Below are positions 3,478 through 59,147 of a stretch of 64,000 bases of DNA, one piece after another; the stretch's first letter is position 1; every line of letters starts with the position of its first letter. The notes beneath the pieces were generated by a model. The model had not been told where the DNA came from. It ran no database searches and saw nothing but the letters and a program-made list of their open reading frames with translations. Position numbers and translations under genes: made by a program. The DNA is taken from NCBI GenBank assembly GCA_000165345.1, contig CM000436.1, positions 1,056,001 through 1,120,000 of the forward strand, in the 5' to 3' direction.

Positions 3478-4254
3478 GTGAAATTTTAAACAATTTTATT
3501 CTTATTATAATACTTTTCCAACTTAATTCATTCAATCAGATAAATCAATCATTTCATTCCTGTAATTAATTATTAATACTATATATATTCACTAAAACTG
3601 ATTAATTTTATTCTAAATCTAATATTTTCTTTTTCTTTCTGACTTATTTTAACTTCATTGTTTTGTAACTTCATTCCTAAATTTTCTCTTATTGGTATTA
3701 TTACTATTATCTTCCCACTTGCCGCCCATGCAGTTATTTTTCTTTTTTAATTCAATGTGGATAAAAATTACGTATACAACGGTAACCACGTAATTTTTAT
3801 AACATGTATATATGCATGCAATGCAAAAATGCATGGCAAGAGGGGGGAATGAGATGCCTGAAAAAATTAAAAGTGTGATTTTAAGGGGGGTGGAGAAGAA
3901 AAAATGATTAATTTGAGAAAATTTTATAAATGAAACGAAAGAATTAAAGAAAGTGAAAATAGAAGTCGAATTTAAAAGTAAAAAAAAAAAGTTGGTCAAT
4001 ACATGTGAATAAGTAAATATTTCAATTTATTACTGCGGTTATTGTCTAATAAGAAATTTTATTTGTATTAAACTTTCAACATAAAATAAAGTGGATATAT
4101 GCAAGTTGAAGAACAGAAAATAATAATATTACTTAAACAGAAAGAATTTTTCTAAAGTTAATTAATTTTTTAAAAAATCCATTCATAAACAAAGATTATC
4201 AAAATAAATTCTTAATTTATTAAAGTTCTTGTTTACGATAATCTAACATAAATA

Positions 4255-5801
4255 ATGTTTAGAGTAATGGATAGTCAAGTTTCAATCATAAGTTACCTTG
4301 GATTAACTCTAAATATATATATTACCATATTTGTTTCATTAATATGGGCATTATTTGTTCATGGAATGAAGTTATGGTTTGAAATACTATTTGGTGTTTG
4401 GATTTTACGTAGAATTTCCCCATTTTCAAAAATTCTTATTGAAAGATTATACAGATTATTAGGATTAGAGTCTGTTGTTTTAGAAAATAAGGATTTAAGG
4501 GGAACTGTATGTATTGTTACAGGTGGAGCAACAGGTATTGGAAAGAAAGTATCCGAGTTTTTTGTTAAATGTGGAGCAACCGTAATAATTGCAGATATAC
4601 AAGAAAATAAAGGCAGAGTTACAGCTTACAAGATTAATACAAATAACTCCTCTACAGGATTAGCAAGATATATGTATATTGATTTATCTGATGAAAAGTC
4701 CATTCGAAGTTTTGTTAAAAGATTTACATAGTAAGTTTTCAACTTGGATATATTAAGATAAATCCAAGAATGAATATAAATTGATTAAATTATTTATTAG
4801 TGATTATGACAGGCTCGATATTCTTGTAAATAATGCAGGAATTGGATCAGGATCAGGATATAGAAAAGAAGAATCAAATGATTTTGAAAAGTATATTAAT
4901 AAAGTATTTCAAGTTAACTATATAGGAACATTTATTTTAACAGAGTTATTATTACCCATTTTAAAAGTAAGTTTTGAGCAAGGCTTATTATCTCAACTAT
5001 CTGAGAAAATATATATATATGTATATATAATAACTTTTATTATTTGAACTTAGAATACAAAAAATTCAAGAATTGTAAATACATGCTCCCCATTACATAG
5101 ATTCTTTGGTTCTAATTTAAGAAAGATACTTGATTATTCACAAATTTTGGAGACTGATTATTCATATGGAGCATCTAAAGCAGCAATACTCCTTTATACA
5201 CTAAAATTAAGAAGGGATGCAATGGGTTTGACATTCTGTCAAACTTTTCAGACTGATAAAGTTGATGAAGGAGGAAATTATGACAATTTTCCTTGGTCAA
5301 CCTGCGTAAATCCTGGATCTGTAAATACTGGAATATTTCCAAAAGTATTTCCATATAGTTTAATATACTATTTTAAATGGTTCTTACTTGATACAAAAAT
5401 GGTGAGTTTAATTTTCATTCAAATATTTTCAATAATTAATTTTCATATTTTTTCTTATCATTTTTTGATAAAATAAAATTTCACCTTTTATTAATATTTA
5501 AAGGGGTCAGAAACTACCATTTTTGCTTCAATATGCCCTAAAGAGCAAGCAACTTTATATATGAGCCCATATTGGTTACCTGGAAATGGATCTTGGTTTA
5601 TAGATAGATTTGCTGATATATTAAGTAAGTATATTTCATAATTATACTCAACTTATTTATTTAATAATACTATCAGGTATATATGTTGGACCCCACTTCA
5701 CCGTCCCAGATCTAAATGATGATGCAGCTTTATCAGCAGAATATCTCTATGAGTGGACATACAACTATTGGAGAGCAAGTAAAACAAAGGAGGAAATTTA
5801 A
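4255..5801 (+). CDS. Short-chain dehydrogenase/reductase (SDR) with an N-terminal transmembrane segment; 5 exons: 4255-4730, 4801-4966, 5054-5401, 5498-5625, 5677-5801
   Basis: The three track ORFs (4255-4731, 4781-5047, 5147-5476) join through GTAAGT/GTGAGT donors and TAG/CAG/AAG acceptors. Splicing restores 'GIGKKV' (Rossmann fold), 'LDILVNNAGIG' (across intron 1) and the catalytic 'YSYGASKAA' motif (exon 3). All phases are consistent and the frame ends at TAA 5799-5801. Confidence 0.75.
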
Positions 5802-5971
5802 AAGATAATAAATATTAACAATATATGATATATTATATATATATGTATAGATATATTTATAAATATGCTATACATATACACAAATCTATGACTAAGTGAA
5901 TTGCCTAAGTTTAATAAAAAAAAAAAAAAGACGATACATATTCTCAATATTGTCTTTATTAAACGGATAGC

Positions 5972-6340
5972 TTACATTCTTATTCCTCCCCCAACTTGAG
6001 AAATCATTGCATCAATCAAATCTCCCTCCTGTAATCCAGCGTCTTCAGCTGTCATTTCTGGCCTTAAACGCTCACCTTCAAATAAGAAACGAATTGATTG
6101 TTCATTTTGGCCAGTTCTTTGACAGAAAGAATTCATCAATTTTTGTAAACGAGTTTTTTTCTTAATTCTATATAAAACTTGTTCCCCATCTGGACTTCTT
6201 ACCTTGACTGTTACATACTGACTATCATCAGAAGCTCCTCCTGTTCCTTGATCTATTACTGGCTTCTGCTCAATTTGATGTCCGTCATTACTCCCCTCGC
6301 CTGCACCCATACTACTATTATCTGTGAATCCTGGATCCAT
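5972..6340 (-). CDS. SUMO: SUMO/Smt3 ubiquitin-like modifier precursor (122 aa, ends ...QVGGGIRM)
   Basis: Ubiquitin-like fold signature 'VTVKVRSPDGEQVLYRIKKKTRLQKLMNSFCQRTGQ...IRFLFEGERL...DLIDAMISQVGG' with a di-Gly processing site followed by a 4-aa tail. Single exon. Confidence 0.9.
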   Translation of the reverse strand: MDPGFTDNSSMGAGEGSNDGHQIEQKPVIDQGTGGASDDSQYVTVKVRSPDGEQVLYRIKKKTRLQKLMNSFCQRTGQNEQSIRFLFEGERLRPEMTAEDAGLQEGDLIDAMISQVGGGIRM

Positions 6341-6768
6341 GTCTTTTTTTAAAAAAATAACTCAACACTTTTCCTAAATATCTATACTTCTCTCCCTTAT
6401 TATTACTATTACTATTGTTTTTCTCACTTTCACCTCCTGACCTTTCCCTAAATTCTTACTTCAATTCTTCTTCTCCACTAGTGTGGATTTTTAATATTAA
6501 TCATTCGAATTTGGCGCCTATACGTGTTTGGCGCCGCTGTGTTGCCGCCATTTGTATAATATATTTGTCGAAAATTTGTCAAAAGAAGAATGTATAGAGG
6601 AAAGTGGGAATATTTTCCGTAATTGAAGTTCACGAAGATGGATTTGAATTATTATTTAGCTCTTCAATATTGAAAAAGCGATTATTATTCTTTCTTGTTA
6701 ATTTCTTTTTCTTTTTTTCCAATTTTTGCCTTAAATATTAATACATGTTTAAGGAACTTACAATCCAA

Positions 6769-7839
6769 TTAGATCTTAGTGAATTTGGCTTGAATCCAAA
6801 CTCTTTGCATAGTAACTTGAGTTTTTCTATTAACAACTTCTCTAAGACAATAGTGATTTGAGATTACTTTGAATCCTGCATTAACAAATAAATTTTCAAT
6901 TTCTTCAATAGTAAAATAGTATGCGAATGTTCCATCATATCTAACATAAAAATTATCTGTGATTTTAGATTTACTTGATTTAGCAAATCTGAGTTGTGCC
7001 ATATCATACCTACCGTAATCTCTAAAAAGTAAAGTAGCTCCAGATTTCAGAGATTTTGAGCATCTTGTAATTACATCCTGGTGATGTTTTGGATGTATTG
7101 CAGATAATACAAAGATTAATAAGCCAAAATCTGCAAAACTTTCGGGACAAATATATGTTGGTATATCAGAATGTACTATATCAAATACAAATCCTCTAAA
7201 TCTAGTGCATGGCTTATCTGAATCTTTTAAACAATTAAATGGACATATTTTTGAATTTTTTTCATTATTTTCATTATTTTCAAGATTAGCCAAAATCTTA
7301 TTCCATCTTTCTTCAAATAAAGAAATTGCTCTTGAAGAACAATCAAATCCAATACAATGTAAATCCTTTGAAATTTGTAATAATGGTATTAAAGAATTAC
7401 CTACTCCACATCCAAATTCAATTAATACTTTAGGATTCATATCATCTGATATATTTGTACTATTAGAAATTAACTCTTTAAACTCCTTATCTATCCAATG
7501 TCTATCTAGAAAGAAGTTTATATTATTTCTTTTATAAAACTTATCCCAATTCTTTACAGATTCCTTTATATATTTGTCTATTAAAAAGTTAAACCAATAT
7601 TAATTACATTCAATTTTTTTTAATTTCTATTTAACTCACCTTTCCAAAATTCTGTAATTGTATCTTTATCTGAATTAATAATTTCTTGAGCTTTACTTAT
7701 TATATCCTCAGTTAATTCAAATTTTCGAACTTATTATTTAAGTTAATATTCCCCACTTTTTTTAAAATAATATTATAAACTTACCTACTTCACTGTCATA
7801 GAAATCTAAATTTCCATCCTTAATTGACTGAGCTTCCAT
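6769..7839 (-). CDS. METTL2/METTL6/METTL8-family methyltransferase (about 317 aa); 3 exons on minus strand: 7785-7839, 7640-7729, 6769-7577
   Basis: The track ORF 6769-7440 stays open upstream to 7577 and encodes 'WDKFYKRNNINFFLDRHWIDKEF' followed by 'FGCGVGNSLIPLL...GFDCS' (SAM motif I). A minus-strand GTGAGT donor sits at 7639 with an AG acceptor at 7578. A second intron spans 7730-7784 (GTAAGT donor, weak AAG acceptor). The ATG is at 7837-7839. Total CDS is 954 nt, in frame. Confidence 0.7.
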
Positions 7840-8394
7840 AATTACTTTAATTTCAAGATCTTTAGTCAAATCTAAGCTTATTCTTTGTTACCTCCCTTTT
7901 AATATATATATATATATCTATTTTTTAATATATTGAATATTGTGCAAAGTATTAAAAAAAAAAAAAAGAAAGAAGTCCTTATTCTAAACTTTTAAAAATC
8001 GAAATAAAAACTCAAAACCTCTTCCATTAATCACTAAACTTTTCCAATAGACTTAATATAGGAAATCCCATGAATTACTTCTTCAATGTTTTTCTTAATA
8101 CTAAGCGTTTAAAAAAGTTGGCGCCAAAAGTCAAATCAAGAATTTATTTTATATATTAAATAATAATTAAAAAGGTAATTTGAGGATTGAAATAAATATT
8201 AATAAATTGAGTTTTTTTTCTGCTTTTCAAGCAAAAGGGTATAGTTTTAGTAAATATTGTATATATTTTACTTTTGTTATTCCTTGAATTGTATGAACTA
8301 TTGCTTTCTAAAGAAAGCTTTAATAGGAAAATCAGGATCTGGGAAGGAATTGGGAAATATATAGAAATATTAAAACATAATTAAAAGTATTAAA

Positions 8395-10431
8395 ATGAAG
8401 GATTTATTAGATTCAGATGGAGAATCTGGAAATCTCCATGATACCAATACTTTAAAGATTAATGAAGATTACAAAAGAAAATATGATGAAAGAAAGAGAA
8501 AAGAAGCTTTATCAAAAGCAAAAGAACTATTAAAAAATGATAGAGAAGGAGAAGATGATGATGAGAGCTATTCTGAGTCAGATTCATCAGATGAAGATGA
8601 GGATTCTGATGCAGAACTTTTGGACTTAAAGACTCAAAATAAAATACTTGAAACTTTGGATAAAATAAAAAAGAAGGATCCTAGCATTTATGATAACTCG
8701 CATGTAATATTTCCAGATTCATCGGATGAATCTGATGATTCTAATGAATCTGATATAAAATCAAGTAATTCTAATACCCAAAAAAATAGTAAACCAATGA
8801 CTTTTAAAGATTACGAAAGAGAGATTTTATTAAAATCTCAAAATGATGAAGAAGATAATGAAATAGTTAAAAAAGGAATATCTAAGAAATTAGGTTATGA
8901 TAAGGAACAAGATGAGCTAAAGAAAGCATTTCTTAAAGCAGCAGAAGGATTAGATGAAAGTGAAGACGAGTTATTTTCTGGAACTCTGATTAAGAAAGAT
9001 AAAAGTAAGGAAGAGCTTGAAGAAGAAGAAAGAAATTTTAAATCATTCCTTACACGTAATATAGAGGAAGGAGGAGATCCAATAGAATCTTTAAATAGAT
9101 ATTGGGGTCCTGAGGAAGATTTGGATGAAAATGAAAAGTTTTTAAGAAATTATATATTAAATCAAGAATGGAAAGAATCCAATAGTCAGAAAAGAATTAA
9201 TGATGAAAACTCATCAAGTTATACAATTCAGACAGAAATGGACGAAGAAGAAGATGAGAAACATTTGGAATTATCAAATGAATTTGAAGGTATATATAAT
9301 TTTAGATACGAAGAACCAGGAGCTAACCAACAGATTATGGGATACTCTAGAGATATATCATCCCTAAGAAGGCCAGATGAACGTAGAAAACTGAAAAGAA
9401 AAGAAAAAAAAGAGAGAAAAGCTGAGGAAAAGCTTAGAATGGAGGAGGAATTAAAGGTTTTAAAGAGTATGAAGAGGAAGGAAATTATTGAAAAGCTTAA
9501 AAAGATTCAAGAAGTTTCAGGAATTAGCTGTATTTCAGATGAAAAGTTGGATTTGGAAGGAGATTTTGATCCTGATAAACATGATAAATATATGGAGGAG
9601 CTCTTTGATGATGATTATAATGAAAAGAAGGAAGATCTTTCATTATGTGAGATTTTGGAAAATAATGATGAAGGATTGAATGAATTAAGTGATGGGAATA
9701 TAAAAAATGAGAAAGAGGCCAAAAAACATAAAAAGAAGCTTTTAATGAAAGAAAACCAATTAAATGACGAATCAGAAATAAAACCACCATCTACTTATGA
9801 AGATGATGACTATGTATGGTGGCAATGTGATGGTTGTTTGAAAGAGATTCTTCCAAATAAGAAAAAATTTGATTGTAAAGTTTGTGAGAACTTTACTCTT
9901 TGTAAGTCTTGTTGTAGAAATACCAACCACGAGCATCCTCTTGAAAAGAGTCGTGTACCAGAGCCAATTAATAAAGAATTTAATGATAATGAAGAAGCGG
10001 AAATTGATGAAATGACCAGTTCTAACAGGCTGAATTTGAGATATGGAGACAATGAAAAGATTAATAGTTTGTTGGATGAATATTATAGTCTCCATTTTGA
10101 AGATGTTTTAGACAATGGTAAGATGCCAGTTAGATTTAAGTATACAAATGTCGAAAAGAATGACTATGGACTTAGTGTTGAAGATATTTTATCAATGGAT
10201 GATAAAGCATTGAATCAACATATTTCTTTAAAGAAGCTGGCTCCATATAGGGTTGATAAGAAGAGAAAGTATTCACCACCAGTAAATACTTCAAATGAAG
10301 CAAAATCTTCGAATAATATGAACAAGAAGCATCATAATAAGGGTAATAAATTCAAACGAAGTTATTCAAATAATAAGAATTCATTAAATACATCCCATAT
10401 TAATAAGCATCGTCTTGAATCTTACTATTAA
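8395..10431 (+). CDS. KRI1: KRI1-like ribosome-biogenesis protein (678 aa) carrying a Cys-rich ZZ-type zinc-finger-like insertion
   Basis: N-terminal 'LKINEDYKRKYDE', acidic Ser/Asp runs and 'LETLDKIKKKDPSIYD' resemble the KRI1 N-domain. C-terminal 'VRFKYTNVEKNDYGLSVEDILSMDDKALNQHISLKKLAPYR' resembles the Kri1 C-domain. 'WWQCDGCLKEI...CKVCENFTLCKSCC...HEHP' lies at aa 469-509. Confidence 0.7.
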   Translation: MKDLLDSDGESGNLHDTNTLKINEDYKRKYDERKRKEALSKAKELLKNDREGEDDDESYSESDSSDEDEDSDAELLDLKTQNKILETLDKIKKKDPSIYDNSHVIFPDSSDESDDSNESDIKSSNSNTQKNSKPMTFKDYEREILLKSQNDEEDNEIVKKGISKKLGYDKEQDELKKAFLKAAEGLDESEDELFSGTLIKKDKSKEELEEEERNFKSFLTRNIEEGGDPIESLNRYWGPEEDLDENEKFLRNYILNQEWKESNSQKRINDENSSSYTIQTEMDEEEDEKHLELSNEFEGIYNFRYEEPGANQQIMGYSRDISSLRRPDERRKLKRKEKKERKAEEKLRMEEELKVLKSMKRKEIIEKLKKIQEVSGISCISDEKLDLEGDFDPDKHDKYMEELFDDDYNEKKEDLSLCEILENNDEGLNELSDGNIKNEKEAKKHKKKLLMKENQLNDESEIKPPSTYEDDDYVWWQCDGCLKEILPNKKKFDCKVCENFTLCKSCCRNTNHEHPLEKSRVPEPINKEFNDNEEAEIDEMTSSNRLNLRYGDNEKINSLLDEYYSLHFEDVLDNGKMPVRFKYTNVEKNDYGLSVEDILSMDDKALNQHISLKKLAPYRVDKKRKYSPPVNTSNEAKSSNNMNKKHHNKGNKFKRSYSNNKNSLNTSHINKHRLESYY

Positions 10432-10657
10432 TTTTATATGATTAAATTATAAGAATGGTTTGAATCTTGTTAATCATATTTTATTTGTCTAATATTGTAA
10501 AGATTTGATGAAATATTTACCATTCATATTCCTCATTATTAGTGTTTTTAAAGTTAATTTATAAGTATTATTTATATTTTAAAAAAAAACCAACTTGTTT
10601 CTTTTTAAATAAGTGTTATTTAATAATCAGTTAATACTTGTTTATTATTGACTAATA

Positions 10658-11740
10658 TTATACAACTTTTTCACCATTCACAGTAATTTGAGGATTAAAC
10701 CCAAGTGAATCTTTAACAACAACATGTTGGTTTCCTTTGGATTTCAACCAATTAACAACATTAGACTGTACATTTCCTGCCATTTGAATTTGTTTCCTTG
10801 CAATTTGTTCAATCCATCTTTAAATTTTAATAATTAGTAAGAAAATAAAATGATATAAACTTGAAATATAAATATACTACATATACTTACCTTAAATCTT
10901 TTGTAGTAAGTGCAGGTACTCCTAATGAAGAATCTGATAATCCAGTATTTTCTATAGTACCCATATTTTTTGAGAATGTAATTCCACTATTCTTGCAGAA
11001 TATCTGAGTAATTATCAAATAAGTTAATATGATAATTTTGTATAAATTTGAATTAATTCAAATAAATAAAAAAAACTTACAGCTTCTGTCAACTTATTCA
11101 TCATTTCGTTTCTCTCTTCGTCAGACTTTGCACACATAACTACAGGTGATCCATCGAAATACATTCTGAAACATTTTCTGCTATTTTGAACAGATTCCAA
11201 AGGAACCTCAATTTTATTAAGTGAGAAACTTCTTACAAGGCTTTCTGGATTTTTTAGGTCTGTCATAAATAATAAATCATCCTTAGTAATTTTTACTCCA
11301 AGAAGATCGACATCGAAAATATTTCTTGGATCCAAAGCTAAAGCTAATTCACCTGAAATCATTACAGAACAGACAGGATCTCTTGGTGAATCAACTACTG
11401 GCATACTAGTAACAACATCTCTTTGCTTTAATTTATTATTTGTAGCATCATTCATTGCTTTTTGGTAAACTGAAACAGCTGATGAAACTGCTTCACTATA
11501 AAGCTTTTCAGAATCTTTCTGGCTTATCTGGGATTTACCTTCCCCAATTACTGATACTGGTTCGACATTTGCACCGATTATTTTTCTTGCAGTTTGTATT
11601 AAAGTTGTGATTGTACCAGGTAAAAATTGTGGCTCTAATAAACCAAAATCTGATGTTGAACGGGTTAATCTTGCATGAGCATATTGGCTCAATCCTGCTA
11701 TTGATAGTAAATTAATCAAAAAGAAAATTCTCATTTTCAT
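10658..11740 (-). CDS. Secreted hypothetical protein, paralog A (signal peptide; 3 exons on minus strand: 11081-11740, 10891-11003, 10658-10817)
   Basis: N-terminal 'MKMRIFFLINLLSIAGLSQYAHA' is signal-peptide-like. Track ORF 11024-11740 reads through a GTAAGT donor at 11080; introns are 11004-11080 and 10818-10890. The spliced frame continues '...NKLTEA|IFCKNSGITF...KDLR|WIEQIARKQ...NGEKVV*' to a TAA at 10658-10660. About 18 of 50 residues match the product of gene 12398-13742. Confidence 0.65.
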
Positions 11741-12397
11741 TATTTCTTTTTTTTTCTAGATTAAACTATATCAAATACTCTCTTCTTTGATTAATAATTA
11801 ATTTTTTTTCTCTGTAGAATATTATTATTATTCTACAATTCCATCCGAATTAATTAATCACAATTTTTTTTTCTTTAGTTATGTGTTATTTTAATTAAAT
11901 TGCATTATAATTAATTTATCGACATTTTTTAATGATTTTTTGGTGCATGTAATTGATGACGTCATTTTTTTTTTTTAAATTGAATTACGTCATTTTATCC
12001 ACATAAATATATACCGGTATTACATACATGCAAAAAATTATTATTCATAATACAATTTTTGCGCATGCAAAAAAAAAATGCAAGTTTGCTAATTTAGTCC
12101 ACATGAAATTGCATGCAAGTTTTTTAAGCTTAAAGAGATAAATAGAAAGAATTAAAAAAAAAATAATTGTTTTTGCATGTATATGCAAAGCCGGTATTCA
12201 ATAAAAGTCAGAAAATGAAAATTCATGCATAAATACATGTAAAAAAAAAATACATTTATGCATACAAGAAAGGAGTAATTCGTGATAATCTAAATTAAAT
12301 CAAAACAAGGGTATTTTCAAAATAATCTTCTTGTTATTTAATATTTAAAAAAATTATCAAATAAATAAAAAAGGTATTTAATTTTGAAAGAAGAATT

Positions 12398-13742
12398 ATG
12401 GTGAAATTATCAAATTTAAAAAAGGCTATTTTACTTTTGGGTTGCATTGGAATGAGTAATGCCTTGACAGTTTTTCATTTAACCAATCCATTCGATTTAT
12501 TACAAGGATTGAGTCATGTTAAGCTTGAGAGAACTACAGAATTACCAGTTTCTCATAAAACTTTGAGGTTTTTACAAGAAAAAATTAAGTCATTTTCTGT
12601 TGATGGGGATAATGTAGCAAAAGAAGCTATTCAAGGTATTAGTTCAACAACAGGAGTCAACTTCAAAACTACTCCTTTATCACAAGAAGCTTTTAAATTA
12701 CAAAGCAATACATTATTTGCTGAAGCTGCTGAAAAGAGAAAGGTTGCTAAATATTTACAAGAGCAAAGTGGAATGACTGAAACTGAACTCACACAGGCAG
12801 AAATTGATCCAAAGAAGAATCCAGAAAAAGCTGCTGCTATCACAAATATGAAACGTGCTAAGGTACTTCTTGCTCAGGCTTATATTTTAGAAGGTAAGGT
12901 TTTATATTTAAACAAAAAATTAATAAGGTGAATAGAAGAAATCAAATAATGTATTTATATTTCTATTCCTCTTTATTGACAAATAAATCAGAAAGTTATT
13001 AACTTAATCTTTTCACCCTAATTTAAATTATAATTAATATAGAGGAAGCTAAAAGAATGCAATTAGCTTCCACTAGAAGTGGAAACAACGAAAGCTTTAA
13101 ATGCGATATTCTCAAGATTGGCCCTCTTGCATTTGCTCCAAATAGTGAAGAAATTACTGATATTATGGATGGATCTCTTGGATTCTTGAATGGTAATATG
13201 TTATCAATTTACTACAACTCAGTAAGTTTATTCTTGATTTCTTCTTTTCTATTCAATATTTAATTCATCATTATCATTCTTGAAATTTAAAGATTCCAAA
13301 AGCATCATTTTCATTAGAAAGTATTGAACTACCAGTTCATAATGTTGACGCTGCTCCAGGATGTATTGGCTTTAAATACCATGGAACAGACCAAATTATT
13401 TGTGCTACAGGAAAAGATAGTCAATCTGCATGGATTAATGCAATCACTGAAGCATGGTTTTGCAGAAACTTAGGTTTAGCAGGAACTTTACCATCAATTT
13501 CTGATAATCAGAGTAAGTTTACAAAAAAAAACCTTAATAATTTGAACCTTTATATTCACCTATTATTATTAATAGAAGAAGAAGAACAAGAAGAAGGTGA
13601 GACTGAAGAAAATGAGGAAAATAGTGACAAGAAACAAAAAGAAAACAAAAAGAAAAAGAAATCATCAAGACTAGTCAGATCTTCAGTAAAAACATTCACT
13701 GTCGAATTAGAAGATGGAAAACCAAAAATTACTCAAAACTAA
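12398..13742 (+). CDS. Secreted hypothetical protein, paralog B (signal peptide; 4 exons: 12398-12892, 13043-13220, 13293-13512, 13576-13742)
   Basis: Track ORFs 12398-12931, 13057-13263 and 13542-13742 link through GTAAGG/GTAAGT donors and TAG/AAG acceptors with consistent phases. The product contains 'SFSLESIELPVHNV...CIGFKYHG...IICATGKDSQSAWINAITEAWFCRNLG', matching 'SFSLNKIEVPLESV...CFRMYFDG...VMCAKSDEERNEMMNKLTEAIFCKNSG' in gene 10658-11740. It has an acidic/basic C-terminal tail. Confidence 0.65.
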
Positions 13743-13954
13743 GAGGGAGGGAAGAAAGAAAAAAACGAGATGAGCATTTACATTAATACCAAACAATAAA
13801 TAATACAAATTTTTTTGCATGTAAATGAATCTATAGTTTATTATTATAATTATTAATGATACAAACAGAAATTAACACTATTATATGATTAACAAATAAT
13901 TAATTTGTATCTTCTGTAATATGATCAAAACAAACTATTTTTTACTAATACAAC

Positions 13955-14581
13955 TTATTCATCATTTGATCCTATCTTCATGTTTGCAAGTTGTTGTAAA
14001 GCAAGTGTATCGGAAATAGACATGCTACCGAATCTAACAGGTGCAAAAGATATTGATGATTCTCTTTGAATTGGGCTAGAAACCTCGAAACTTGCATTAA
14101 AATCTTCATTTGGCTCATCATAGTGCTCAGTTTTTGACTTAATGGGAATATTAGTCTCGTCTGAATCACTCTTATCTTTATGTTTGAGACCTCTTTTAAA
14201 CTTCGCAACCGCTTCAAATTGAGCTCTTACATGTTGTAATGTTACACGTCTTCTAGATACCATTGCAGCTAATCTTGCTCTTTGTTTATAAGCATCCACT
14301 ACCTCCTCTTTAGTGTGTGCTAGTGATTGCTGCCTAACTAAATAAGAACGCTCTATGGCTCCTTTCAAACCACCTGAATTGCTAAAACTGATATTTCTTA
14401 GCAATTCACGAGTATTTTGATTAATTATTTGTCTTGTTTCCTCTGGTAACTGTGTTTCATCAAACTCTATATTACTCTCAAACGGAATCAACTTCTTATG
14501 AATCTCTTCATCAAGCTGAGAATCCTCAGCTTCTTCTGAAGCCATCAGCTGTTCTCCATATTCGTTTACTCCATTATCCAT
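13955..14581 (-). CDS. Hypothetical acidic protein (208 aa), function not recognised
   Basis: Clean single ORF in a coding-like AT-skewed context, not low-complexity, with a basic central segment 'AYKQRARLAAMVSRRRVTLQHVRAQFEAVAKFKRG'. I cannot name a family from memory. Confidence 0.5.
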   Translation of the reverse strand: MDNGVNEYGEQLMASEEAEDSQLDEEIHKKLIPFESNIEFDETQLPEETRQIINQNTRELLRNISFSNSGGLKGAIERSYLVRQQSLAHTKEEVVDAYKQRARLAAMVSRRRVTLQHVRAQFEAVAKFKRGLKHKDKSDSDETNIPIKSKTEHYDEPNEDFNASFEVSSPIQRESSISFAPVRFGSMSISDTLALQQLANMKIGSNDE

Positions 14582-26194: not shown

Positions 26195-26840
26195 TTTTCT
26201 ATATTAGTATATATACTTTTTTCGTCATATATATGATTTTTGTTTTTAACTTAATTAACTTATATGTTTACGCTTTATTCTTTTTATTTCAAAGTGAAAT
26301 TTTATGATTTATGTCCAAATTCCTTTCTTTTTTTTTATCCACATTTCAAATTATTAATCAATTATTTAATTACTGGTTGCATGCATGCACGTATTCATTT
26401 TTGCAATTCTTACTACACCGGTATATAAGCAATTGATTTATGTAATTAATGTGGACATTACGTGTCTATTAATAATTACCGGTATACAGTTTAAAGAAAA
26501 AAAAAATGTAAATAGCAAATTGCGGGAAAAAAAATCATTGCAATTATTAAATAATATACAATTATGCAGGAAAATTGAAGGAATTAACAAAACTTCTAAA
26601 ACAATTATATTGCTTTTAATGCTGGTATATGAAGATCAAAAAAACGATTAATTATTATTTTCTTTTATCGTTTACTCTGGAATAGAGATAAGTTGATTAA
26701 CTTCAAGTATTTAAAAATAAATTGTGATAAATTTTAATAGAAATATTATTATTGAAGAAGATTTAATCAATTTAAGTTAATTTATGATTTACAAAGTTTT
26801 TTTAAAATACTGAGGTAATAATTCAGATGAATAAAAAACA

Positions 26841-28951: not shown

Positions 28952-30241
28952 TTTTCTTTGCTTTAAATATATTAACGATTAAGTTTATTCTAATATAGTT
29001 GAATCAGCAGATGATATATGCTTATATACTGCTTTCTTTTGAGTCTTTTAACTAGTAATAATCTTCCTTTAAGAAGCTTAATTAGCTAATATTATCAGCT
29101 CGAAATTAATTCAAATATTATGTACACTCGTACAAATTTAATTTAATGTTTATTAACTGATTGACTACTCTCTAGTTATCTACTTTTTATCTTGAGTTAT
29201 TTTTTCATGCATGCAATTGCCTGTGGCTTGCTTGCATTATTATTTCAATAATAAAATTTTTATTATTATTTTTTTTATGTGGATAATTTGCATACATGCA
29301 TGCAAACTTGCATTCACAAAAATGTCAGTTTTTCTATACCGGTATGCACAAATTTTTATTATTAATTTTTTTGTCCACATTCATACACATGTAATAATAA
29401 AATTAAACTGATAAAAGCAGAAAAATTTAATATGATTTATGAAATTAAAAAAAAATTTGTTTATGTGGGAAAATATTGGAAAAATAGAAAGATCATATAT
29501 TATTGGATTGAATTAAAATTGATAAAACCATAATTTTTAAGATAAGAAATCATTTTTTTTTAATGGTAAATTGCGATTCGTGGTTTTTGAATTTAAACAA
29601 TACCTAAAAGCTAAAGAAGAAAGAAAGTATATAATAAATATATCTTAAATTATTATAAACAGAATATTATCTCTTATTTTGCAATAATAAGTTTGATAAA
29701 ATAATTTATTTGATAATGTTTTATTATTAACGCAAAGTTAAATAATAATTATAATAATTAATTTAATGGAAAAGAAAGCATTTATTAATGTGGATAAAAT
29801 GATACAATATAATTAATCTGCAAACTTATTTCGTCGAATTAAATTGAATTCAAGTTAATTAAATATTATTAAATTATATGTCATTCTTTAAAGTTTTAAA
29901 AATTGGTTAATTTTTTTTTCCCTAAATATCATGTAAATGGGCAAGATGTTGGACAAGGCGGTAATATTTAATTAATTGATAATCGAATACAAGCTAATAA
30001 TCAAACATAAGAAAAAAAAAATTCTTCTAAAAATAAGAATTAAGAATATAACTTTGTATATTCCAATATAATAAGAATTAGCTTTTAGAGAATTATAAGC
30101 AAAGTTAACTGATGAAATTTGGTGGTTCCAAATTTACTTAGAAAGCTAAAATTATTCCAAATTAAAGAAGAATACAAGAAATTTCTGTAAGAGAAAAAGG
30201 CACACAATAACAAGCATATAAATAAAAATATATCTTTCATT

Positions 30242-33848: not shown

Positions 33849-36800
33849 ATGTTGAATTCTGTGGATGTTGATAAATCAGGTAGATTTGGAATATTTAGTA
33901 GGAAGGATGTTTATATATATAATTTAGATAGATGGAAAGATAGAATAGATGATGGGCTAGAATTTATTAAGGTAGATAAAGGAAAGAAGATAGGATTAAA
34001 GAAGTCTACAGAAGCAAGTAGTAACCTTAATTCAATTTTTATGGATGAATATGACCATAATAGTTCTAAGTATCCTGAAATAGTAAAATTTGGAACTCAT
34101 CCAAGTATGTATGGGAATTTCATAAATATTCAAGGGAATTTAATACTATATGGAAGTTTGGAAACTATTGGACTGGATTGTATTTCAACTCAGATGATGA
34201 ATATCAGTTCTTTTGACTGGAGTCCTCATTTTTCAACAGGTACTTTTGTAACAAGTTGTGAGGATGCGTTAATAAGAGTCTCAGATATAAGGAGTAAAAG
34301 TCTAGACTTATCATTCATGTCGTTCTATAATACAAATTGCATTAAATGGAATCCTTTAAATTCTTATTTAATAGGAGCTTTACATGAAAATGGAGAATTT
34401 TTAAGTATTTATGATCTTAGAGTTTTAAAGTCTACTGGTATAATATCTAGAAATCAGTGGCTAAATGATAATTTGAAAAGAAAGGAGAGAGAGACAAGAG
34501 GTAGAGAAAAGGGTAATACCGAATTTACATGGTTACCATTATCATCAGATAAAGTTTTGATTTCCGAAACAGATTATTTATGTATAATTGATTTTAAAAT
34601 AGCTATTGAAAGCTCTAATACAGCTTATAATAGTATTGCAGATTGTAATAATAATTTAAGAGTTAGAAATGGAGCACAATATATATCATTAACAAATCCT
34701 AATATTTCTCCAGATTTTGAAATACTCAACTTTTCATCAAGTTCGGTTGAAGAGGATGATGAACTAGGAGAGGATGAAGGTAATAGCTTAATGAATCAAG
34801 GTCATACTCAAGTTGATACAGAAATGGATATTCAGGATTTAAACTGGAAGAATAGAACAAATATAAAGGTTAATACATTTGATTTTTTACCAGGAACAAA
34901 TGATCTAATAATTAATGATAAAAATGGAAGATTCTACTTTAGTGAAATCAAATATAGCGATGATTTGGAACTTAAAAAGCTTAAATTAAAATATAGTGGG
35001 CCAGTAAAGAGAATTTTTTCAAGAGAAAATAATGGACTAACAGTTTTTGGAGGATTAAAAGCAGCAAGTCACTCAAGTATTAGTTATTTTGAAAGTGAAG
35101 AAAAAAATATAAAATATGATTTTTATGCAACTTCTTTACCACAAATAAATAATAAAAGAAATACTACAGAAGATGAAAAATACAAAATGTCAAACTTGAC
35201 ACTTCAAAGCTTCTGTTTGGACTGGTTTTATAGAGATTTGAATATGATCTATGAAAAAGTAAAGTTAAACCAACAAATGGCAAATAATCTAATATCAATT
35301 TCTATTGAGTCAAACGAAAGGATTATAGCAAAACTTTCAAGACATCCATCATTACGTGGGAAATTTGTAATGGAAGATAATACAAATCTTAATTTAGTTA
35401 TTGATTCTTTTGAATTTACAATAATTTTAACAACACAAAAAAATAATATTAAAGCTACTTATTATTTCACTAATAATACAATTCTCTTAATTAAAGAGAT
35501 TTTTTCATATCTTTCTATTATTGAAAAATCAGAATTAAATATTAATTCATGTGGACAAGAATTTAAAAAATTACAAAATTATGACTACACGTCACTAAAT
35601 TATTTGCATGTAAAAGAAAAAAATTACATGCAAAATTTAATACCGGTAAGAGTTTATGTGGATAATATAATATTGAATGGTAAAGAGAGAGAGAAATTGT
35701 GTGAATTATTTAGAATAGAACTTGATAAGGAATTATTAATATCATTATTTAATGAAACAGTGATAAGTAATAAAGCTCAAGTATCAAAGCAATTAATAGA
35801 TTGGGTATGGATTATTTCTAGTTTACCAGAATTAATATTTGGATTATTAATTCAAAATGATGGATCAAAAAAAGAACAACAATTAGAGTTAATATCATCA
35901 ACTAGAAAGCATGTATATGGGATAGGATTTGAACAACATGCAATAGTTGGTGAAAATTATGAGAAAAAAGCAAGAATTTCATTTACATTTAATACATTAG
36001 ATAAATTGATCATATCTCAAGGAAATTATTTAGTAGTAATGAAAGTGAATAATGAGGATGATTGGAATAGAGCTACAAGGTATGAGAATATATTGATTGA
36101 GATTAATGAAATGTTAAGAAAAGTGGAATATATTTCAGAGGAAAGGTTCTTATATGGAGATTATTTTAAATATGCATATGTACTATTTAGTTGGCTAACA
36201 AGAGTTTTATATAAGCAAAATAGAAGACGTAGTGTCAAGGATATACAGAATTTTAGTATAGATCCAACCAATATTGAAGAAAATTCAAATTTGAGTATGA
36301 TGTTATGTCCGACAGTTGTTCACTCATATTTTAAGAATAAAAGTGATGCTAATACATCTAGAAGACAGTTTGACCATATAATTGATTCTGTTACTCCTAT
36401 CACATACAAGTTTAATTTAACTTGTTCTAGTTCATCATGTTTTGATCAGATTGATAAAACAAAGCTTTTTATTTTACTAAAGAAATTATATTTGGAAATT
36501 AAAAATAATTATGATGCTAGAATTTTGGTGGTGGCTATTCAAAAGCTTTCAAATCATATAAAGAGAACCGAAGATTGGTATAAGTTAAAAAATGATTCAA
36601 AAATGGGATTAGGAAATCGATTAGAAGGAATGGGAGCAAATGAACTCATTTCAGAGTTGGAGTTGAATCCAGTATCATTATCTGAAATACAAAGAGGAGG
36701 AATAATATCAGATAATAATGGTTCAATTTTAGCTCATTCTGTTTCACCTTTTCCCTTGGATTTGACTTTATATTCAGAATATAAATCTACTCAAGTACTG

Positions 36801-36977
36801 AAACTTGCATCAGAAGCTTGCAGTATTTGTTTGGAACCAGTTTTTGGTCTTTATACACGTTGTATAAGTTGTAAGCATGGAGGTCATATAAAGCATATTA
36901 AAGATTGGTTCGAGGATAGGACAATATGCCCTATGGTAAACTGTAAATGCAAATGCGTCCCGGAAGAATGGAAGTAG
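33849..36977 (+). CDS. WD40-repeat protein with C-terminal RING-like Zn finger, WDR24/Sea2 (GATOR2)-like, 1042 aa
   Basis: N-terminal WD-like repeats ('...DWSPHFSTGTF...', 'IKWNPLNSYLIGALHENGEFLSIYDLRV'). The C-terminus 'CSICLEPVFGLYTRCISCKHGGHIKHIKDWFEDRTICPMVNCKCKC' follows the WDR24/Sea2 terminal RING pattern C-x2-C...C-x2-C-x-H-G-G-H-x2-H...W-F...C-P...C-x-C-x-C, as I recall it. Confidence 0.55.
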   Translation: MLNSVDVDKSGRFGIFSRKDVYIYNLDRWKDRIDDGLEFIKVDKGKKIGLKKSTEASSNLNSIFMDEYDHNSSKYPEIVKFGTHPSMYGNFINIQGNLILYGSLETIGLDCISTQMMNISSFDWSPHFSTGTFVTSCEDALIRVSDIRSKSLDLSFMSFYNTNCIKWNPLNSYLIGALHENGEFLSIYDLRVLKSTGIISRNQWLNDNLKRKERETRGREKGNTEFTWLPLSSDKVLISETDYLCIIDFKIAIESSNTAYNSIADCNNNLRVRNGAQYISLTNPNISPDFEILNFSSSSVEEDDELGEDEGNSLMNQGHTQVDTEMDIQDLNWKNRTNIKVNTFDFLPGTNDLIINDKNGRFYFSEIKYSDDLELKKLKLKYSGPVKRIFSRENNGLTVFGGLKAASHSSISYFESEEKNIKYDFYATSLPQINNKRNTTEDEKYKMSNLTLQSFCLDWFYRDLNMIYEKVKLNQQMANNLISISIESNERIIAKLSRHPSLRGKFVMEDNTNLNLVIDSFEFTIILTTQKNNIKATYYFTNNTILLIKEIFSYLSIIEKSELNINSCGQEFKKLQNYDYTSLNYLHVKEKNYMQNLIPVRVYVDNIILNGKEREKLCELFRIELDKELLISLFNETVISNKAQVSKQLIDWVWIISSLPELIFGLLIQNDGSKKEQQLELISSTRKHVYGIGFEQHAIVGENYEKKARISFTFNTLDKLIISQGNYLVVMKVNNEDDWNRATRYENILIEINEMLRKVEYISEERFLYGDYFKYAYVLFSWLTRVLYKQNRRRSVKDIQNFSIDPTNIEENSNLSMMLCPTVVHSYFKNKSDANTSRRQFDHIIDSVTPITYKFNLTCSSSSCFDQIDKTKLFILLKKLYLEIKNNYDARILVVAIQKLSNHIKRTEDWYKLKNDSKMGLGNRLEGMGANELISELELNPVSLSEIQRGGIISDNNGSILAHSVSPFPLDLTLYSEYKSTQVLKLASEACSICLEPVFGLYTRCISCKHGGHIKHIKDWFEDRTICPMVNCKCKCVPEEWK

Positions 36978-55802: not shown

Positions 55803-58800
55803 ATGGTAGAAGGATGGCTAACCACTTCAAAATCTATGTCAGGTTTGTTTGGTAAAAGCTTGATTTCAAAGCAAAAAAGTACAAGTGGAAGTATAAATTT
55901 TAATGATGATGAATTAACAGATAACATTGTAGTAGATTTAGGTGACTTTTCAAATAATAATAATAATAAAAGTGATAACTTATATTCTAGAAAAGATTCA
56001 AAAGGAGGAGAATTTGATAAAAGTAAAGGCTCACTACTGAGATTATTTCAATCAGATGTATTTGATGCTCACCTACATTTATATTATATATATCATCATA
56101 AAGAATTTGGAGTTCATGAATATCTTGTAAACTTATTATATGAAAGATCTGATGAGATTTTATGGTATTTACCACAATTATGTGAAATATCTTTAAATAG
56201 ATTTGAGAAGAGTAGCCTTTGGAAATATTTTCTTGATAAATCGAGTGAAAATATGAACTTTTCTTTGATACTTTCTTGGATGTATCAAGCAATGAATGAA
56301 GATAATATACCATTAATTTCAGAATATGCTCAAAATATGCTTCAAGAAATTGAAATGGCAATGGTAAATAGCAAACTTAAGCCTGATATTAGATATATAG
56401 AAAAGAGATTATATTTTTGGAGAAGGTCCAATTTATCTGTTTTTCAGTCACTTTGTAATCAAAATATGAAATTGAATGATATTGAAGATGAATTTAAAGA
56501 TAATGATAACACAATGTTAATGAATCGTGAAAATACCAATACTCAATTATCTTTAGCAATTTACTCAACTCTTCCTAGTAGTGAAACAATAAATTTGAAT
56601 GAAAGTGATGATTTAAATCAAGATGATAATAATAGAATAATATCTTCAGATATAAATACAAATACGATTCCAAATAATAATTCAAAAACAATTAAACTTT
56701 CATCTTGTGATGTTTTACCTGATATTTGGATTTATAGAATTATTAATGATGATTTTAGTTGTGAAAATAAAGCAAAGATTGAATATATACAAACAAAACT
56801 TGGATTAATAAATCGTCAATTTAAGAATTTATATTCAAATGCAACTTGTGCTGCTTATTATAATCCAAATCCAGGAACATCTTTAAATTATAAAAGTGGA
56901 GTTTCATCAAGTGCTTTTGGTTCATTAAACTCAGGATTTTTACCAACAAGTATAATATCAGGATCATCATCTTTTGGTACATTTAGTTCAGGTGGAAATT
57001 CTAATAAAGTTTCAATACCTTACTTTTTCTTTTCAAAATTAGGTTCTCCATTTGATTTAATTGATGTTAATAAGATAATAAATGATATTCAATTTAGATC
57101 AAAATCTAGAATAAACTTGATAAATAAGAGCCATAATTTTAATGTACAAGATAATAGTTCTGAAGATACAGTATCTATTCCAAAAACCCCAAGAGACGTG
57201 ATAAGAATTACTCATCCTTTTTCTCCTTGTTCAGAAACAGAATCAGAAACTAACAATTTGGATTTGGATGATAATGGTACTTTTGAGGAGATAAAATTAG
57301 CTCCAGATTCAAATGTTTGTAGTGATAATGATAATAAGAAGATACCAATATTAACACCAAATTCAACCAAAATAATAGAATGCTTAGAAAATTTATCAAA
57401 TGAGAATTCTGGTTCCCCAATACAATTAAATGATGATATTCTTAGAAATGAAGAAATATTTAAAGTATATATATCTGAAATTGAAAAAGAGAGTGAAACA
57501 CTTTATTATTTACTTAAACAACATAGATATAATTACTTTAATAGAGTAAATCAACTTGTTTCACAATTTCTTGAAATTTCAAATTACTTGCAATCAAATA
57601 TTAATAAAGAACATAGATGTGAGATTTTGGAATTTATTATAGAAGAATTAAATCTTTGGCTCTTTTATTCAAGATTTTCAATTTCAATTTCAAGAACAAC
57701 ATTTTTATTAAATAGTATTTCTTTACCAATGCCATCATTTAATAATGAATTTTGTAGTAGATTTTCAGAAAATGATAGTTTTAATTCAAATAATAAAGAT
57801 GGGAATAGTAAAGGTATAATTGGATTTTCTCACTCAGATTATATTATGGATAAAGGTTTATGTTCTCTAAATAATTGCCAATTTTTACGTATAATTCCAA
57901 ATGAATGTAAAATTTATAATTCCAGAAAAAGAGTTCACTTTTTATTAGCAATTGAAATTGCAGATCTTGATGATCAAGATTATGAGCTTGGAAAGAATTC
58001 TCAAGATTTAATTTCTAAGGATATTTTAAATTATCTCAAAAATCATGGAATTAAACTTAAAACTGATAATAATGATGAAAATCAAAATAGATCCCAAGAT
58101 ATATTGCTTAATTTTCTTAATATACTTTCTGTTGGTATTTCAGAATCAATTGATATGGGCTTATCTCAAGAAGACTTTAACCAAATAACTTTTATTGATA
58201 ATAAAGATTCTGATGAGATTGAAGATTCTAGTATTCATGATAATGAATTAAGTGATGAAGATATATTTATTAATAAAGATTGGCCTCAAGAAACTTGGTC
58301 AAGTAAGATTAAGAGATATAGAAAAGAATCACCCTACTCAAAATTAAAGAGTTGGGGTATTAAAACACTTTTGTTAAAATCCTCAGATGATCTTAGACAA
58401 GAATATCTTGCATCTCAATTACTTCAACAATTTGATTGGATTTTTAAAATTAATAAATTACCCTTATGGCTTCATCCATATGAAATACTTGTAATTGGTT
58501 CTCATGGTGGATTTATTGAATATATTCAAGATACTTTCTCCATAGATAGCCTTAAACGTAGATTCCAGACTGATAATCTTTTGAATTGCTTTGATCAGTT
58601 ATTTAAAGATGAGGAACTTAAATCTAAAGCAAGGAAATGTTTTGTTGAAAGTCATGCTGCTTATAGCCTTGTTAGTTATTTCCTTCAAGTTAAAGATAGA
58701 CATAACGGTAATTTCTTAATTGATAAGCATGGCCACATTATTCAAATTGATTACGGGTTTATGTTAAGTAATTCTCCTGGTAATGTAAATTTTGAGCAAA

Positions 58801-59147
58801 GTCCTTTCAAATTAACTCAAGAATTTCTTGACGTCATGATGGGTGAAAACTCTTCTGATTTCCAATATTTTCAACAACTTATTATTAAAGGATTCTTAGC
58901 CTCCAGAAAACATGTTGACCAAATTGTTTTAACCATTGAATCTATGACTTCAGCATCCAAACTTCCTTGTTTCTCTTTGTTTACAAACAAGGAATACTTT
59001 ATTCAAGATATTAGAGATCGTTTCTTTCTTCATCTTACTGAGGAACAATGTGTTGTTAAAGTCACAGAATTAATTCAATCTTCAATAAATAATTGGAGAT
59101 CCATTCAATATGATGCATTCCAACGAATTACCAATGGAATTCTTTAG
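55803..59147 (+). CDS. PI4K: Phosphatidylinositol 4-kinase (PI4KIII-beta/Pik1-like), 1114 aa
   Basis: C-terminal PI3/PI4-kinase catalytic domain: 'GIKTLLLKSSDDLRQEYLASQLL', catalytic loop 'VKDRHNGNFLID', activation segment 'IDYGFML', 'SPFKLTQEFLDVM'. The long N-terminal region is low-complexity. Confidence 0.85.
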   Translation: MVEGWLTTSKSMSGLFGKSLISKQKSTSGSINFNDDELTDNIVVDLGDFSNNNNNKSDNLYSRKDSKGGEFDKSKGSLLRLFQSDVFDAHLHLYYIYHHKEFGVHEYLVNLLYERSDEILWYLPQLCEISLNRFEKSSLWKYFLDKSSENMNFSLILSWMYQAMNEDNIPLISEYAQNMLQEIEMAMVNSKLKPDIRYIEKRLYFWRRSNLSVFQSLCNQNMKLNDIEDEFKDNDNTMLMNRENTNTQLSLAIYSTLPSSETINLNESDDLNQDDNNRIISSDINTNTIPNNNSKTIKLSSCDVLPDIWIYRIINDDFSCENKAKIEYIQTKLGLINRQFKNLYSNATCAAYYNPNPGTSLNYKSGVSSSAFGSLNSGFLPTSIISGSSSFGTFSSGGNSNKVSIPYFFFSKLGSPFDLIDVNKIINDIQFRSKSRINLINKSHNFNVQDNSSEDTVSIPKTPRDVIRITHPFSPCSETESETNNLDLDDNGTFEEIKLAPDSNVCSDNDNKKIPILTPNSTKIIECLENLSNENSGSPIQLNDDILRNEEIFKVYISEIEKESETLYYLLKQHRYNYFNRVNQLVSQFLEISNYLQSNINKEHRCEILEFIIEELNLWLFYSRFSISISRTTFLLNSISLPMPSFNNEFCSRFSENDSFNSNNKDGNSKGIIGFSHSDYIMDKGLCSLNNCQFLRIIPNECKIYNSRKRVHFLLAIEIADLDDQDYELGKNSQDLISKDILNYLKNHGIKLKTDNNDENQNRSQDILLNFLNILSVGISESIDMGLSQEDFNQITFIDNKDSDEIEDSSIHDNELSDEDIFINKDWPQETWSSKIKRYRKESPYSKLKSWGIKTLLLKSSDDLRQEYLASQLLQQFDWIFKINKLPLWLHPYEILVIGSHGGFIEYIQDTFSIDSLKRRFQTDNLLNCFDQLFKDEELKSKARKCFVESHAAYSLVSYFLQVKDRHNGNFLIDKHGHIIQIDYGFMLSNSPGNVNFEQSPFKLTQEFLDVMMGENSSDFQYFQQLIIKGFLASRKHVDQIVLTIESMTSASKLPCFSLFTNKEYFIQDIRDRFFLHLTEEQCVVKVTELIQSSINNWRSIQYDAFQRITNGIL

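Follow-up and report, generated by a model that had tools for sequence, protein, structure and literature searches.

CryPH of Plasmodium yoelii carries a signal peptide together with a PH domain and is found in the ookinete crystalloid; orthologues have been reported in Babesia, Theileria, and Cryptosporidium (PMC6291999). It has been shown that an adjacent paralogue, CryPH-p, is 20% identical to CryPH and conserves all four of its cysteines (PMC6291999). CryPH-p is now named CryPH2. It lies head-to-head with CryPH in P. yoelii and is also a crystalloid protein, and its loss disorders the packing of crystalloid particles and lowers sporozoite infectivity (PMC13223096). Loss of Plasmodium CryPH alone gives no phenotype. 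Both Plasmodium proteins were located to the ookinete crystalloid by immuno-electron microscopy and green fluorescent protein (GFP) tagging, and both are in the LAP/CCp interactome (PMC6291999; PMC13223096; PMC7487766). The family, described with endoplasmic reticulum (ER) signal peptides (PMC6291999; PMC7487766), was named PH-like (PHL) and given the signature C(X)9W(X)9C by Tremp et al. (2020), with all four Plasmodium members present in the LAP3 interactome (PMC7487766). In this study, a 64-kb stretch of Cryptosporidium parvum chromosome 8 (the window; G+C about 28%) was analyzed. It contains a divergently transcribed gene pair, here called A and B, the products of which are identical to deposited C. 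parvum proteins. We consider it very likely that the locus is C. parvum CryPH (gene A) and CryPH2 (gene B), ancient paralogues of the crystalloid PHL family; this judgment includes their co-expression and the crystalloid mechanism set out below. The genes and the protein features on which the comparison rests are as follows.

10658..11740, minus strand: gene A, cgd8_4290, predicted CryPH orthologue; exons 11740..11081, 11003..10891, and 10817..10658; 310 amino acids (aa)
12398..13742, plus strand: gene B, cpbgf_8004310 / CPATCC_0004510, predicted CryPH2 orthologue; exons 12398..12893, 13043..13221, 13293..13512, and 13576..13742; 353 aa
10980..11371, minus strand: PH-like domain of A, aa 124-228, interrupted by intron 1 (11004-11080); Cys124, Cys190, Cys203, Cys223
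13102..13478, plus strand: PH-like domain of B, aa 186-287, interrupted by intron 2 (13222-13292); Cys186, Cys249, Cys262, Cys282
10658..10726, minus strand: conserved C-terminal tail of A, HVVVKDSLGFNPQITVNGEKVV, with the stop codon; from the family alignment, Pro300 invariant
13686..13742, plus strand: conserved C-terminal tail of B, VKTFTVELEDGKPKITQN, with the stop codon; aligns with CryPH tails, e.g., P. malariae IVISDIKNDKPKIEFN
11672..11740, minus strand: predicted signal peptide of A, MKMRIFFLINLLSIAGLSQYAHA, likely cut after AHA; by inspection
12398..12463, plus strand: predicted signal peptide of B, MVKLSNLKKAILLLGCIGMSNA; by inspection

Each gene has its own counterpart in Plasmodium. 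In BLASTP searches gene A matched P. malariae CryPH with an E value of 9.5e-18 (68.6 bits) versus 5e-7 (36.6 bits) for CryPH2. The preference of gene B was reversed: E 1e-20 (79.0 bits) for CryPH2, over 201 aa that include the helical part before the domain, versus 4.8e-7 (36.2 bits) for CryPH. Hidden Markov models of the A and B ortholog sets gave the same pattern of scores. The genes divergent from CryPH in B. microti and T. annulata match B (E 1e-13 and 6e-19, respectively), and B and the piroplasm CryPH2 genes have I[ST]EAWFC.N.G..GTL in common. In a neighbor-joining tree of the domain, B, these piroplasm neighbors, and P. malariae CryPH2 formed one clade with 99% bootstrap (200 replicates); the tree is distance-based, uses about 100 columns, and includes two piroplasm sequences pieced together from tblastn segments. 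These comparisons argue for A being CryPH and B being CryPH2, in one-to-one orthology with the Plasmodium genes. Beyond these species, an exhaustive profile search with the A orthologues returned 12 proteins at E <= 1e-3, including a PH domain-containing protein of Toxoplasma gondii, a protein of Babesia microti annotated as a 'conserved Plasmodium protein', and proteins of B. duncani and Theileria annulata. It was this search that found the distant members; when homologues were sought by word index from the mixed alignment A3, Cryptosporidium proteins alone were returned. A sequence-only reading of the window, made earlier, had suspected an apicomplexan-specific family, and the family is indeed restricted to apicomplexans and their relatives.

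If A is CryPH and B is CryPH2, their duplication would be older than the split between Cryptosporidium and Plasmodium. A very different history can be proposed, in which tandem duplication occurred recently, within Cryptosporidium or separately lineage by lineage, and was followed by divergence and later gain or loss of introns. The genes are adjacent and paralogous, no intron position is shared by A and B, and Tremp et al. (2020) read the Plasmodium chromosome 7 pair in this way (PMC7487766). Such a history is nevertheless hardly credible given the reciprocal bit scores and the CryPH2 clade that unites B with the piroplasm and Plasmodium genes. In addition, A and B are only 28% identical to each other, versus 61-65% for each of them between intestinal and gastric Cryptosporidium species, and the same orientation with a Kri1 neighbor recurs in four lineages, as described below. 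Recent duplication was rejected on the reciprocal scores, the 99% clade, and the conserved gene order. As judged from these comparisons, the antiquity of the pair contradicts the 'relatively recent gene duplication' reading of Tremp et al. (2020; PMC7487766). It also bears on the introns. In gene A a phase-0 intron immediately follows the TEA codons, and the sequence-only reading had taken this intron, and its lack in gene B, as a sign of intron gain or loss after duplication. The intron is correctly placed and is not shared by B; however, since the duplication would be ancient, no recent event can be read from the difference. A and B have none of the five intron positions in common. There is likewise no basis for proposing an ancient intron common to gene A and piroplasm CryPH, as the five introns of the piroplasm CryPH genes are at positions other than those of gene A.

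The surroundings of the pair are conserved as well. The gene next to A in the window is

8395..10431, plus strand: Kri1 homologue, convergent on gene A; Pfam Kri1 and Kri1_C domains

The order Kri1(+), A(-), B(+) was found in five Cryptosporidium species (the window, C. canis, C. felis, C. bovis, and C. muris). In the last four, gene B is followed by a 206-aa uncharacterised gene, fibrillarin, and ubiquitin hydrolase. In P. malariae (L001) the order is CryPH2(-), CryPH(+), Pet191(+), Kri1(-), with CryPH at 8001-8903 (+), the divergent 410-aa CryPH2 at 5652-6884 (-), and Kri1 identified from Pfam. The same four genes, CryPH2(-), CryPH(+), Pet191, and Kri1(-), occur in B. microti (L006), and T. 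annulata (L007) has CryPH2-like(-), CryPH(+), Kri1(-). The Cryptosporidium order is thus the mirror image of the Plasmodium/piroplasm order: CryPH2 and CryPH are divergent, and Kri1 is convergent on CryPH. The divergent, head-to-head transcription noticed earlier in the window therefore recurs in P. malariae, B. microti, T. annulata, and four further Cryptosporidium species. Between CryPH and Kri1, the two lineages keeping cytochrome oxidase assembly have Pet191. The P0046 contig, on which no divergent partner was seen, is uninformative for gene order.

These gene orders suggest that the head-to-head arrangement with Kri1 convergent on CryPH predates the split of Cryptosporidium from Plasmodium and piroplasms. 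A survey by DeBarry and Kissinger (2011) counted zero synteny blocks between Cryptosporidium and Plasmodium, Theileria, or Babesia (PMC3176833), and the CryPH2-CryPH-Kri1 block looks like an exception to that count. It was probably missed because gene B was then split in the annotation and the members of the family have diverged too far to be grouped automatically as orthologs. It is a single case recognized post hoc, covering Cryptosporidium, P. malariae, B. microti, and T. annulata, with coccidia left out. We give somewhat less than an even chance to the fuller interpretation that this is genuine three-gene synteny in which selection keeps the pair for co-expression from one bidirectional promoter, and possibly for a function of the pair in crystalloid assembly.

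The similarity between the two proteins is well above chance. BLASTP of A 124-228 against B 186-287 gave 28% identity over 105 aa (E 2e-12), and hhalign of the A and B ortholog alignments gave 96% probability (E 1.6e-9). In the shuffling test that the earlier reading had named as its own possible refutation, the Smith-Waterman score of A against B was 123, versus 37.4 +/- 5.7 in 1000 shuffles (z = 15, extreme-value p ~2e-9). The genes are thus true paralogues, as proposed. The C-terminal similarity of about 60 aa on which that proposal was based is real (ungapped identity in that stretch is 20/60), but its extent was drawn too short for what is a 105-aa domain. The V/T-rich tails noted in both proteins correspond to a true conserved C-terminal motif, ..V.V....G.P.I.., and the tail of A aligns with that of B and with the CryPH tails of Toxoplasma, Babesia, Theileria, and Plasmodium. 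In a family alignment of 20 sequences from Cryptosporidium, Toxoplasma, Babesia, Theileria, and Plasmodium, the four cysteines (C124, C190, C203, and C223 of A), Pro180, Ala220, and the tail Pro300 are invariant. The cysteines correspond between the proteins, those of A aligning with C186, C249, C262, and C282 of B, as expected from the criterion of Jenwithisuk (2018).

The shared module appears to have a PH-like fold, for A according to a structural model and for B by alignment to the A domain (E 2e-12). In each protein a helical linker precedes it. The Pfam PH family (PF00169) scored 17.7 bits in A, below the 25.1-bit gathering threshold, and a scan of the gene B protein with PF00169 gave no PH match. 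In the AlphaFold2 model of A built on the 20-sequence alignment, residues 123-228 have a predicted local distance difference test score (pLDDT) of 85-91 and form seven strands followed by a C-terminal helix. The distant homologues were needed for a good model; with six Cryptosporidium sequences alone the mean pLDDT was 34. A Foldseek search of the model against PDB gave 302 matches at E <= 1e-3, and the best 50 of the 302 were all PH domains. The best single-domain matches were DAPP1 1fao (template modeling score, TM, 0.81; root-mean-square deviation, rmsd, 2.3 Å; 99 columns), ARAP3, and TAPP1 1eaz.

By inspection, the loop between strands 1 and 2 of A (strands 128-135 and 144-151) is ALDPRNIFDVD and its counterpart in B is FAPNSEEITDIMD. 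Both loops are acidic/neutral, and the basic phosphoinositide-binding motif of this loop was found, again by inspection, in neither A nor B. Because that motif is missing, the four cysteines are invariant, and a signal peptide is predicted, we infer that the module binds proteins in the lumen and is stabilised by disulfides, and that it does not read phosphoinositides in the cytosol. A cytosolic lipid-binding PH protein was rejected on the same three features.

Gene B fits the family signature exactly (C262-x9-W272-x9-C282). The tryptophan is kept in all Cryptosporidium, Plasmodium, and piroplasm CryPH2 sequences. Among CryPH sequences it is kept in Toxoplasma, Plasmodium, B. microti, and B. 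duncani, replaced by Phe in T. annulata CryPH and in P0052, and missing from all sampled Cryptosporidium species (Met in five A orthologues, Val in C. serpentis). A Glu/Lys-rich low-complexity insert precedes the tail of B (13576-13680, exon 4); intestinal species differ in its length, and C. muris lacks both the insert and intron 3.

Signal peptides had been predicted for both genes, and both N-termini are signal-peptide-like when judged by eye. That of A reads MKMR + IFFLINLLSIAGL + SQYAHA, where 13 hydrophobic residues come after a basic start and positions -3/-1 hold small residues; the AlphaFold2 model shows an N-terminal helix. That of B reads MVKLSNLKK + AILLLGCIGM + SNA, where the start is basic, the core hydrophobic, and the likely cut preceded by S-N-A. 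Signal-peptide proteins of Cryptosporidium that have no assigned function are usually expected to be exported to the host interface. On that expectation, A and B would be effectors that invasive stages send to the host-parasite interface, with dense granules, small granules, or the rhoptry as their origin. The signal-peptide-like N-termini agree with this, and in one source the C. ubiquitum orthologue of A goes by the name 'Secreted protein'. However, the crystalloid-body class of hyperLOPIT used by Tandel (2023, supplementary code) lists cgd8_4290, cgd8_4300, and cgd8_4310, i.e., all three old gene models of the locus, and the Plasmodium orthologues lie in the crystalloid by the immuno-electron microscopy and GFP tagging cited above. 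The 61-65% identity to gastric species is high for Cryptosporidium and unlike that of fast-evolving effectors, and orthologues occur in parasites with very different hosts. Export of this kind is very improbable, and it was rejected on the crystalloid assignment and the sequence conservation. The 'secreted' label given to the pair earlier holds insofar as both proteins enter the secretory pathway; they would be residents of an internal organelle, the crystalloid body.

The two start codons of CryPH and CryPH2 are separated by a short spacer, which had been described as a region of about 660 bp at 11741-12397; the coordinates hold, and the exact length is 657 bp. Its features, which have no strand, are listed below.

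11741..12397: divergent promoter region, 657 bp, between the two start codons
11944..12264: core motif cluster; word counts, enrichment, conservation
11944, 12027, 12064, 12110-12117 (full TGCATGCA), 12174, and 12224: TGCATG/CATGCA; word count
11957-11964: TGACGTCA; word search
11987-11992: ACGTCA, 28 bp beyond TGACGTCA, inside a repeated AT[GT]ACGTCATTTT
11995-12003: TTATCCACA; word search
12011-12020: palindrome ATACCGGTAT, which contains the only exact ACCGGTAT
12190-12197: GCCGGTAT, second site

The motifs reported earlier were largely recovered. The full palindrome at 11957-11964, the second ACGTCA half-site at 11987, and TTATCCACA at 11995 are as had been read, and the claim of at least six TGCAT-type boxes is borne out by seven hexamer matches at six sites, one of them a full TGCATGCA. 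Two copies of another word had been claimed; a second site is present as GCCGGTAT (12190), but there is only one exact ACCGGTAT, inside ATACCGGTAT. An extended word, TTTTTGCATGTA, is present in the spacer in both orientations. The seven TGCATG/CATGCA matches compare with 0.41 expected by resampling (p ~2e-4), and only one other 657-bp stretch of the window has >=6 (at least six) such hexamer matches. The words TGCATG, TACCGGTA, CCACAT, and TGACGTCA are enriched in the spacer, and other Cryptosporidium species conserve them. Identity to C. canis is 60% for the spacer, versus 38-49% for introns, and the C. canis spacer has the same words in the same order. TGCATG(CA) and TACCGG(TA) are retained in the spacers of C. 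felis, C. bovis, and C. muris, and CCACA in all of these but C. muris, in which the spacer is only 215 bp long.

It has been shown that TGCATGCA is the AP2_1 motif and that TGCAT is bound by several of the AP2 domains of C. parvum. An unnamed word found upstream of class II oocyst-wall protein genes, A[T/A]G[T/A]GGA.A, has TATCCACAT as its reverse complement. The female-specific factor AP2-F (cgd4_1110) is listed as an AP2_1-like binder. Most transcripts reduced on its loss are female-specific, and oocyst shedding is lowered in infected mice. cgd8_4290 is among the reduced transcripts (log2 fold change -0.999, about two-fold). The suggestion that the TGCAT-type boxes confer stage-specific AP2 regulation thus fits published data.

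The same words invite a plainer explanation, namely that the spacer motifs are general C. parvum promoter words that form no specific shared device, so that each gene could be driven separately. TTATCCACA, TGCATGCA, CCGGTAT, and ACGTCA also cluster by unrelated genes at about 3.7-3.8, 26.3-26.5, 29.2-29.3, 35.6, and 59.3 kb of the window. TGCAT-type motifs have been found upstream of clusters expressed at every time point surveyed, and gene A is the only one of the pair among the listed AP2-F-dependent transcripts. On the other side, the content and partly the order of the motifs are conserved across five species, even in the 215-bp C. muris spacer; the hexamer density is matched by only one other stretch of the window; both products are in the same organelle; and the divergent arrangement has been kept since the apicomplexan radiation. 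We regard this explanation as unlikely, with a chance large enough to be taken seriously. As for the motif-dense shared promoter proposed from the sequence, its words are enriched and conserved, but the set is not specific to this promoter.

Taking the pair as CryPH and CryPH2, the following mechanism can be proposed. In the female gamete, AP2-F and co-factors would bind the central motif cluster and turn on both genes together. The A and B proteins would then enter the ER, where their PH-like domains may be stabilised by two disulfides. The domains would serve as protein-binding modules, not as cytosolic phosphoinositide-binding ones, within the LCCL/CCp complex, which would pack vesicles into the crystalloid inherited by sporozoites.

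Several points weigh against this picture. The published list of transcripts that drop significantly on AP2-F loss does not include gene B, so that equal control of both genes by AP2-F does not follow from it. That the two proteins reside in the crystalloid in C. parvum is known from their fractionation with the sporozoite crystalloid body, in proteomics data taken from a supplement, and not from microscopy. The motif words are not crystalloid-specific, as they also cluster by housekeeping-type genes (SNW/SKIP, TFIIS), and the CryPH/CryPH2 intergenic regions of Plasmodium, Babesia, and Theileria show no shared motif cluster. Gene A keeps the spacing of the family signature with Met213 instead of Trp (C-x9-M-x9-C; codon 11102-11104). 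The disulfides and the protein-binding role, finally, are inferences.

The gene models agree with the deposited proteins once two junctions are corrected. The exons proposed earlier for gene A give an open 310-aa frame identical to C. parvum P0019; the sources' name for cgd8_4290 is 'PH domain-like protein'. The multi-exon model of gene B stands after correction, when its translation is identical to C. parvum P0033; as first drawn, junctions 12892/13043 and 13220/13293 were each one base short and the frame was broken. All five introns start with GTAAG and end with AG, are 63-149 nt long, and have 14-20% GC. Compared with C. canis, exons are 73-85% identical with <=3 gapped positions, versus 38-49% identity and 13-28 gapped positions for introns. 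According to the open reading frame (ORF) list, retention of four of the five introns leads to an in-frame stop. The exception is intron 3 of gene B (13513-13575, 63 nt), the retention of which keeps the frame open. The C. hominis UKH1 annotation P0034 (377 aa) reads through it, and for that reason junction 13512/13576 is the least certain of the five. In C. muris CryPH2, introns 1 and 2 of gene B are kept and the third is absent. Public annotations of both genes conflict (window 12398-13742 and 11004-11080; P0023, P0030, P0035, P0034, P0005, and P0010). Gene A is truncated at intron 1 in Iowa II (238 aa) and in C. bovis (244 aa), and the C. felis annotation reads through intron 1, with a 17-aa insert. 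The first Iowa II annotation split gene B into cgd8_4300 and cgd8_4310 (177-aa and 204-aa models). No Rfam family matched in 10400-14000.

Elsewhere in the window, the CryPH promoter motif set recurs in tight clusters at 3727-3830, 26335-26485, 29206-29345, 35589-35665, and 59291-59326. The recurring set consists of TTATCCACA/TGTGGATAA (7 copies in the window), TGCATGCA (10 copies), ATACCGGTAT/CCGGTAT, and (TG)ACGTCA, and the ORFs flanking the recurrent clusters include those for a short-chain dehydrogenase, SNW/SKIP, a 177-aa uncharacterised protein, and TFIIS. This recurrence suggests a reusable composite promoter module; the words may also be part of a general promoter vocabulary. The cluster at 35589-35665 (ACGTCA, TGCATG, CATGCA, ATACCGG, and TGTGGATAA within 77 bp) lies inside a continuous ORF of 1042 aa, 33849-36977 (+), with a C-terminal RING/zinc-ribbon as its sole Pfam match. 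The cluster could represent an internal promoter, an intron (ATACCG|GTAAGA resembles a splice donor), or a sign of a mis-joined gene model. The densest cluster, 59291-59326 (TTATCCACATGACGTCA, then TGCATGCATGCA), lies between the 3′ ends of two convergent ORFs, 55803-59147 (+) and 59525-62761 (-), a PI4-kinase and a 1078-aa uncharacterised protein, where no promoter is expected; it may drive an unannotated small gene or a non-coding/antisense transcript.

The advance made here is modest, as the family and its localisation were already known. What is new is the matching of each gene to its ortholog, the evidence that the duplication is ancient, and the conservation of the divergent pair together with Kri1, a rare case of gene order common to Cryptosporidium and blood parasites. 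The current view of the PHL family is unchanged by these results. Plasmodium crystalloid proteins are needed for infective sporozoites, and since AP2-F loss cuts C. parvum oocyst shedding, the CryPH/CryPH2 locus would be part of a transmission-relevant pathway. Its compact conserved divergent promoter, 215 bp in C. muris, could be a test bed for female-stage transcription in Cryptosporidium.

Compared with known systems, gene A is most like Plasmodium CryPH. Both have a signal peptide, a PH-like domain, four cysteines, and the C-terminal tail, both are head-to-head with CryPH2, they are best reciprocal matches, and both have been assigned to the crystalloid, A by fractionation proteomics from the literature. 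Unlike Plasmodium CryPH, gene A has Met for the signature Trp and two introns, versus none in P. malariae. The crystalloid itself is found in sporozoites in Cryptosporidium, and in ookinetes and young oocysts in Plasmodium. Gene B, known here from sequence and literature listings, resembles Plasmodium CryPH2 / CryPH-p (PY17X_0705100 / PBANKA_0704800) in its longer helical N-terminal part, which is alignable (201 aa, E 1e-20), in its divergent position relative to CryPH, and in the exact C-x9-W-x9-C signature; it has the ITEAWFC.N.G motif in common with Theileria and Babesia. It differs from Plasmodium CryPH2 in the Lys/Glu-rich insert before the tail and in having three introns. Canonical PH domains (PF00169; DAPP1, TAPP1, CERT) share with the A/B module the seven-strand sandwich and C-terminal helix (TM ~0.8, rmsd 2.3-2.6 Å, ~100 residues); the module differs from them in its sub-threshold or missing Pfam score, its secretory-lumen location, its four conserved cysteines, and its acidic/neutral loop between strands 1 and 2. 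The LCCL/CCp (LAP) genes under AP2-F (cgd7_300, cgd7_1730, and cgd2_790) belong to the same hyperLOPIT class and the same AP2-F-dependent female transcript set as cgd8_4290. Their promoters lie outside the window, and their products, unlike A and B, are large multi-domain adhesive proteins, unrelated to the pair in sequence.

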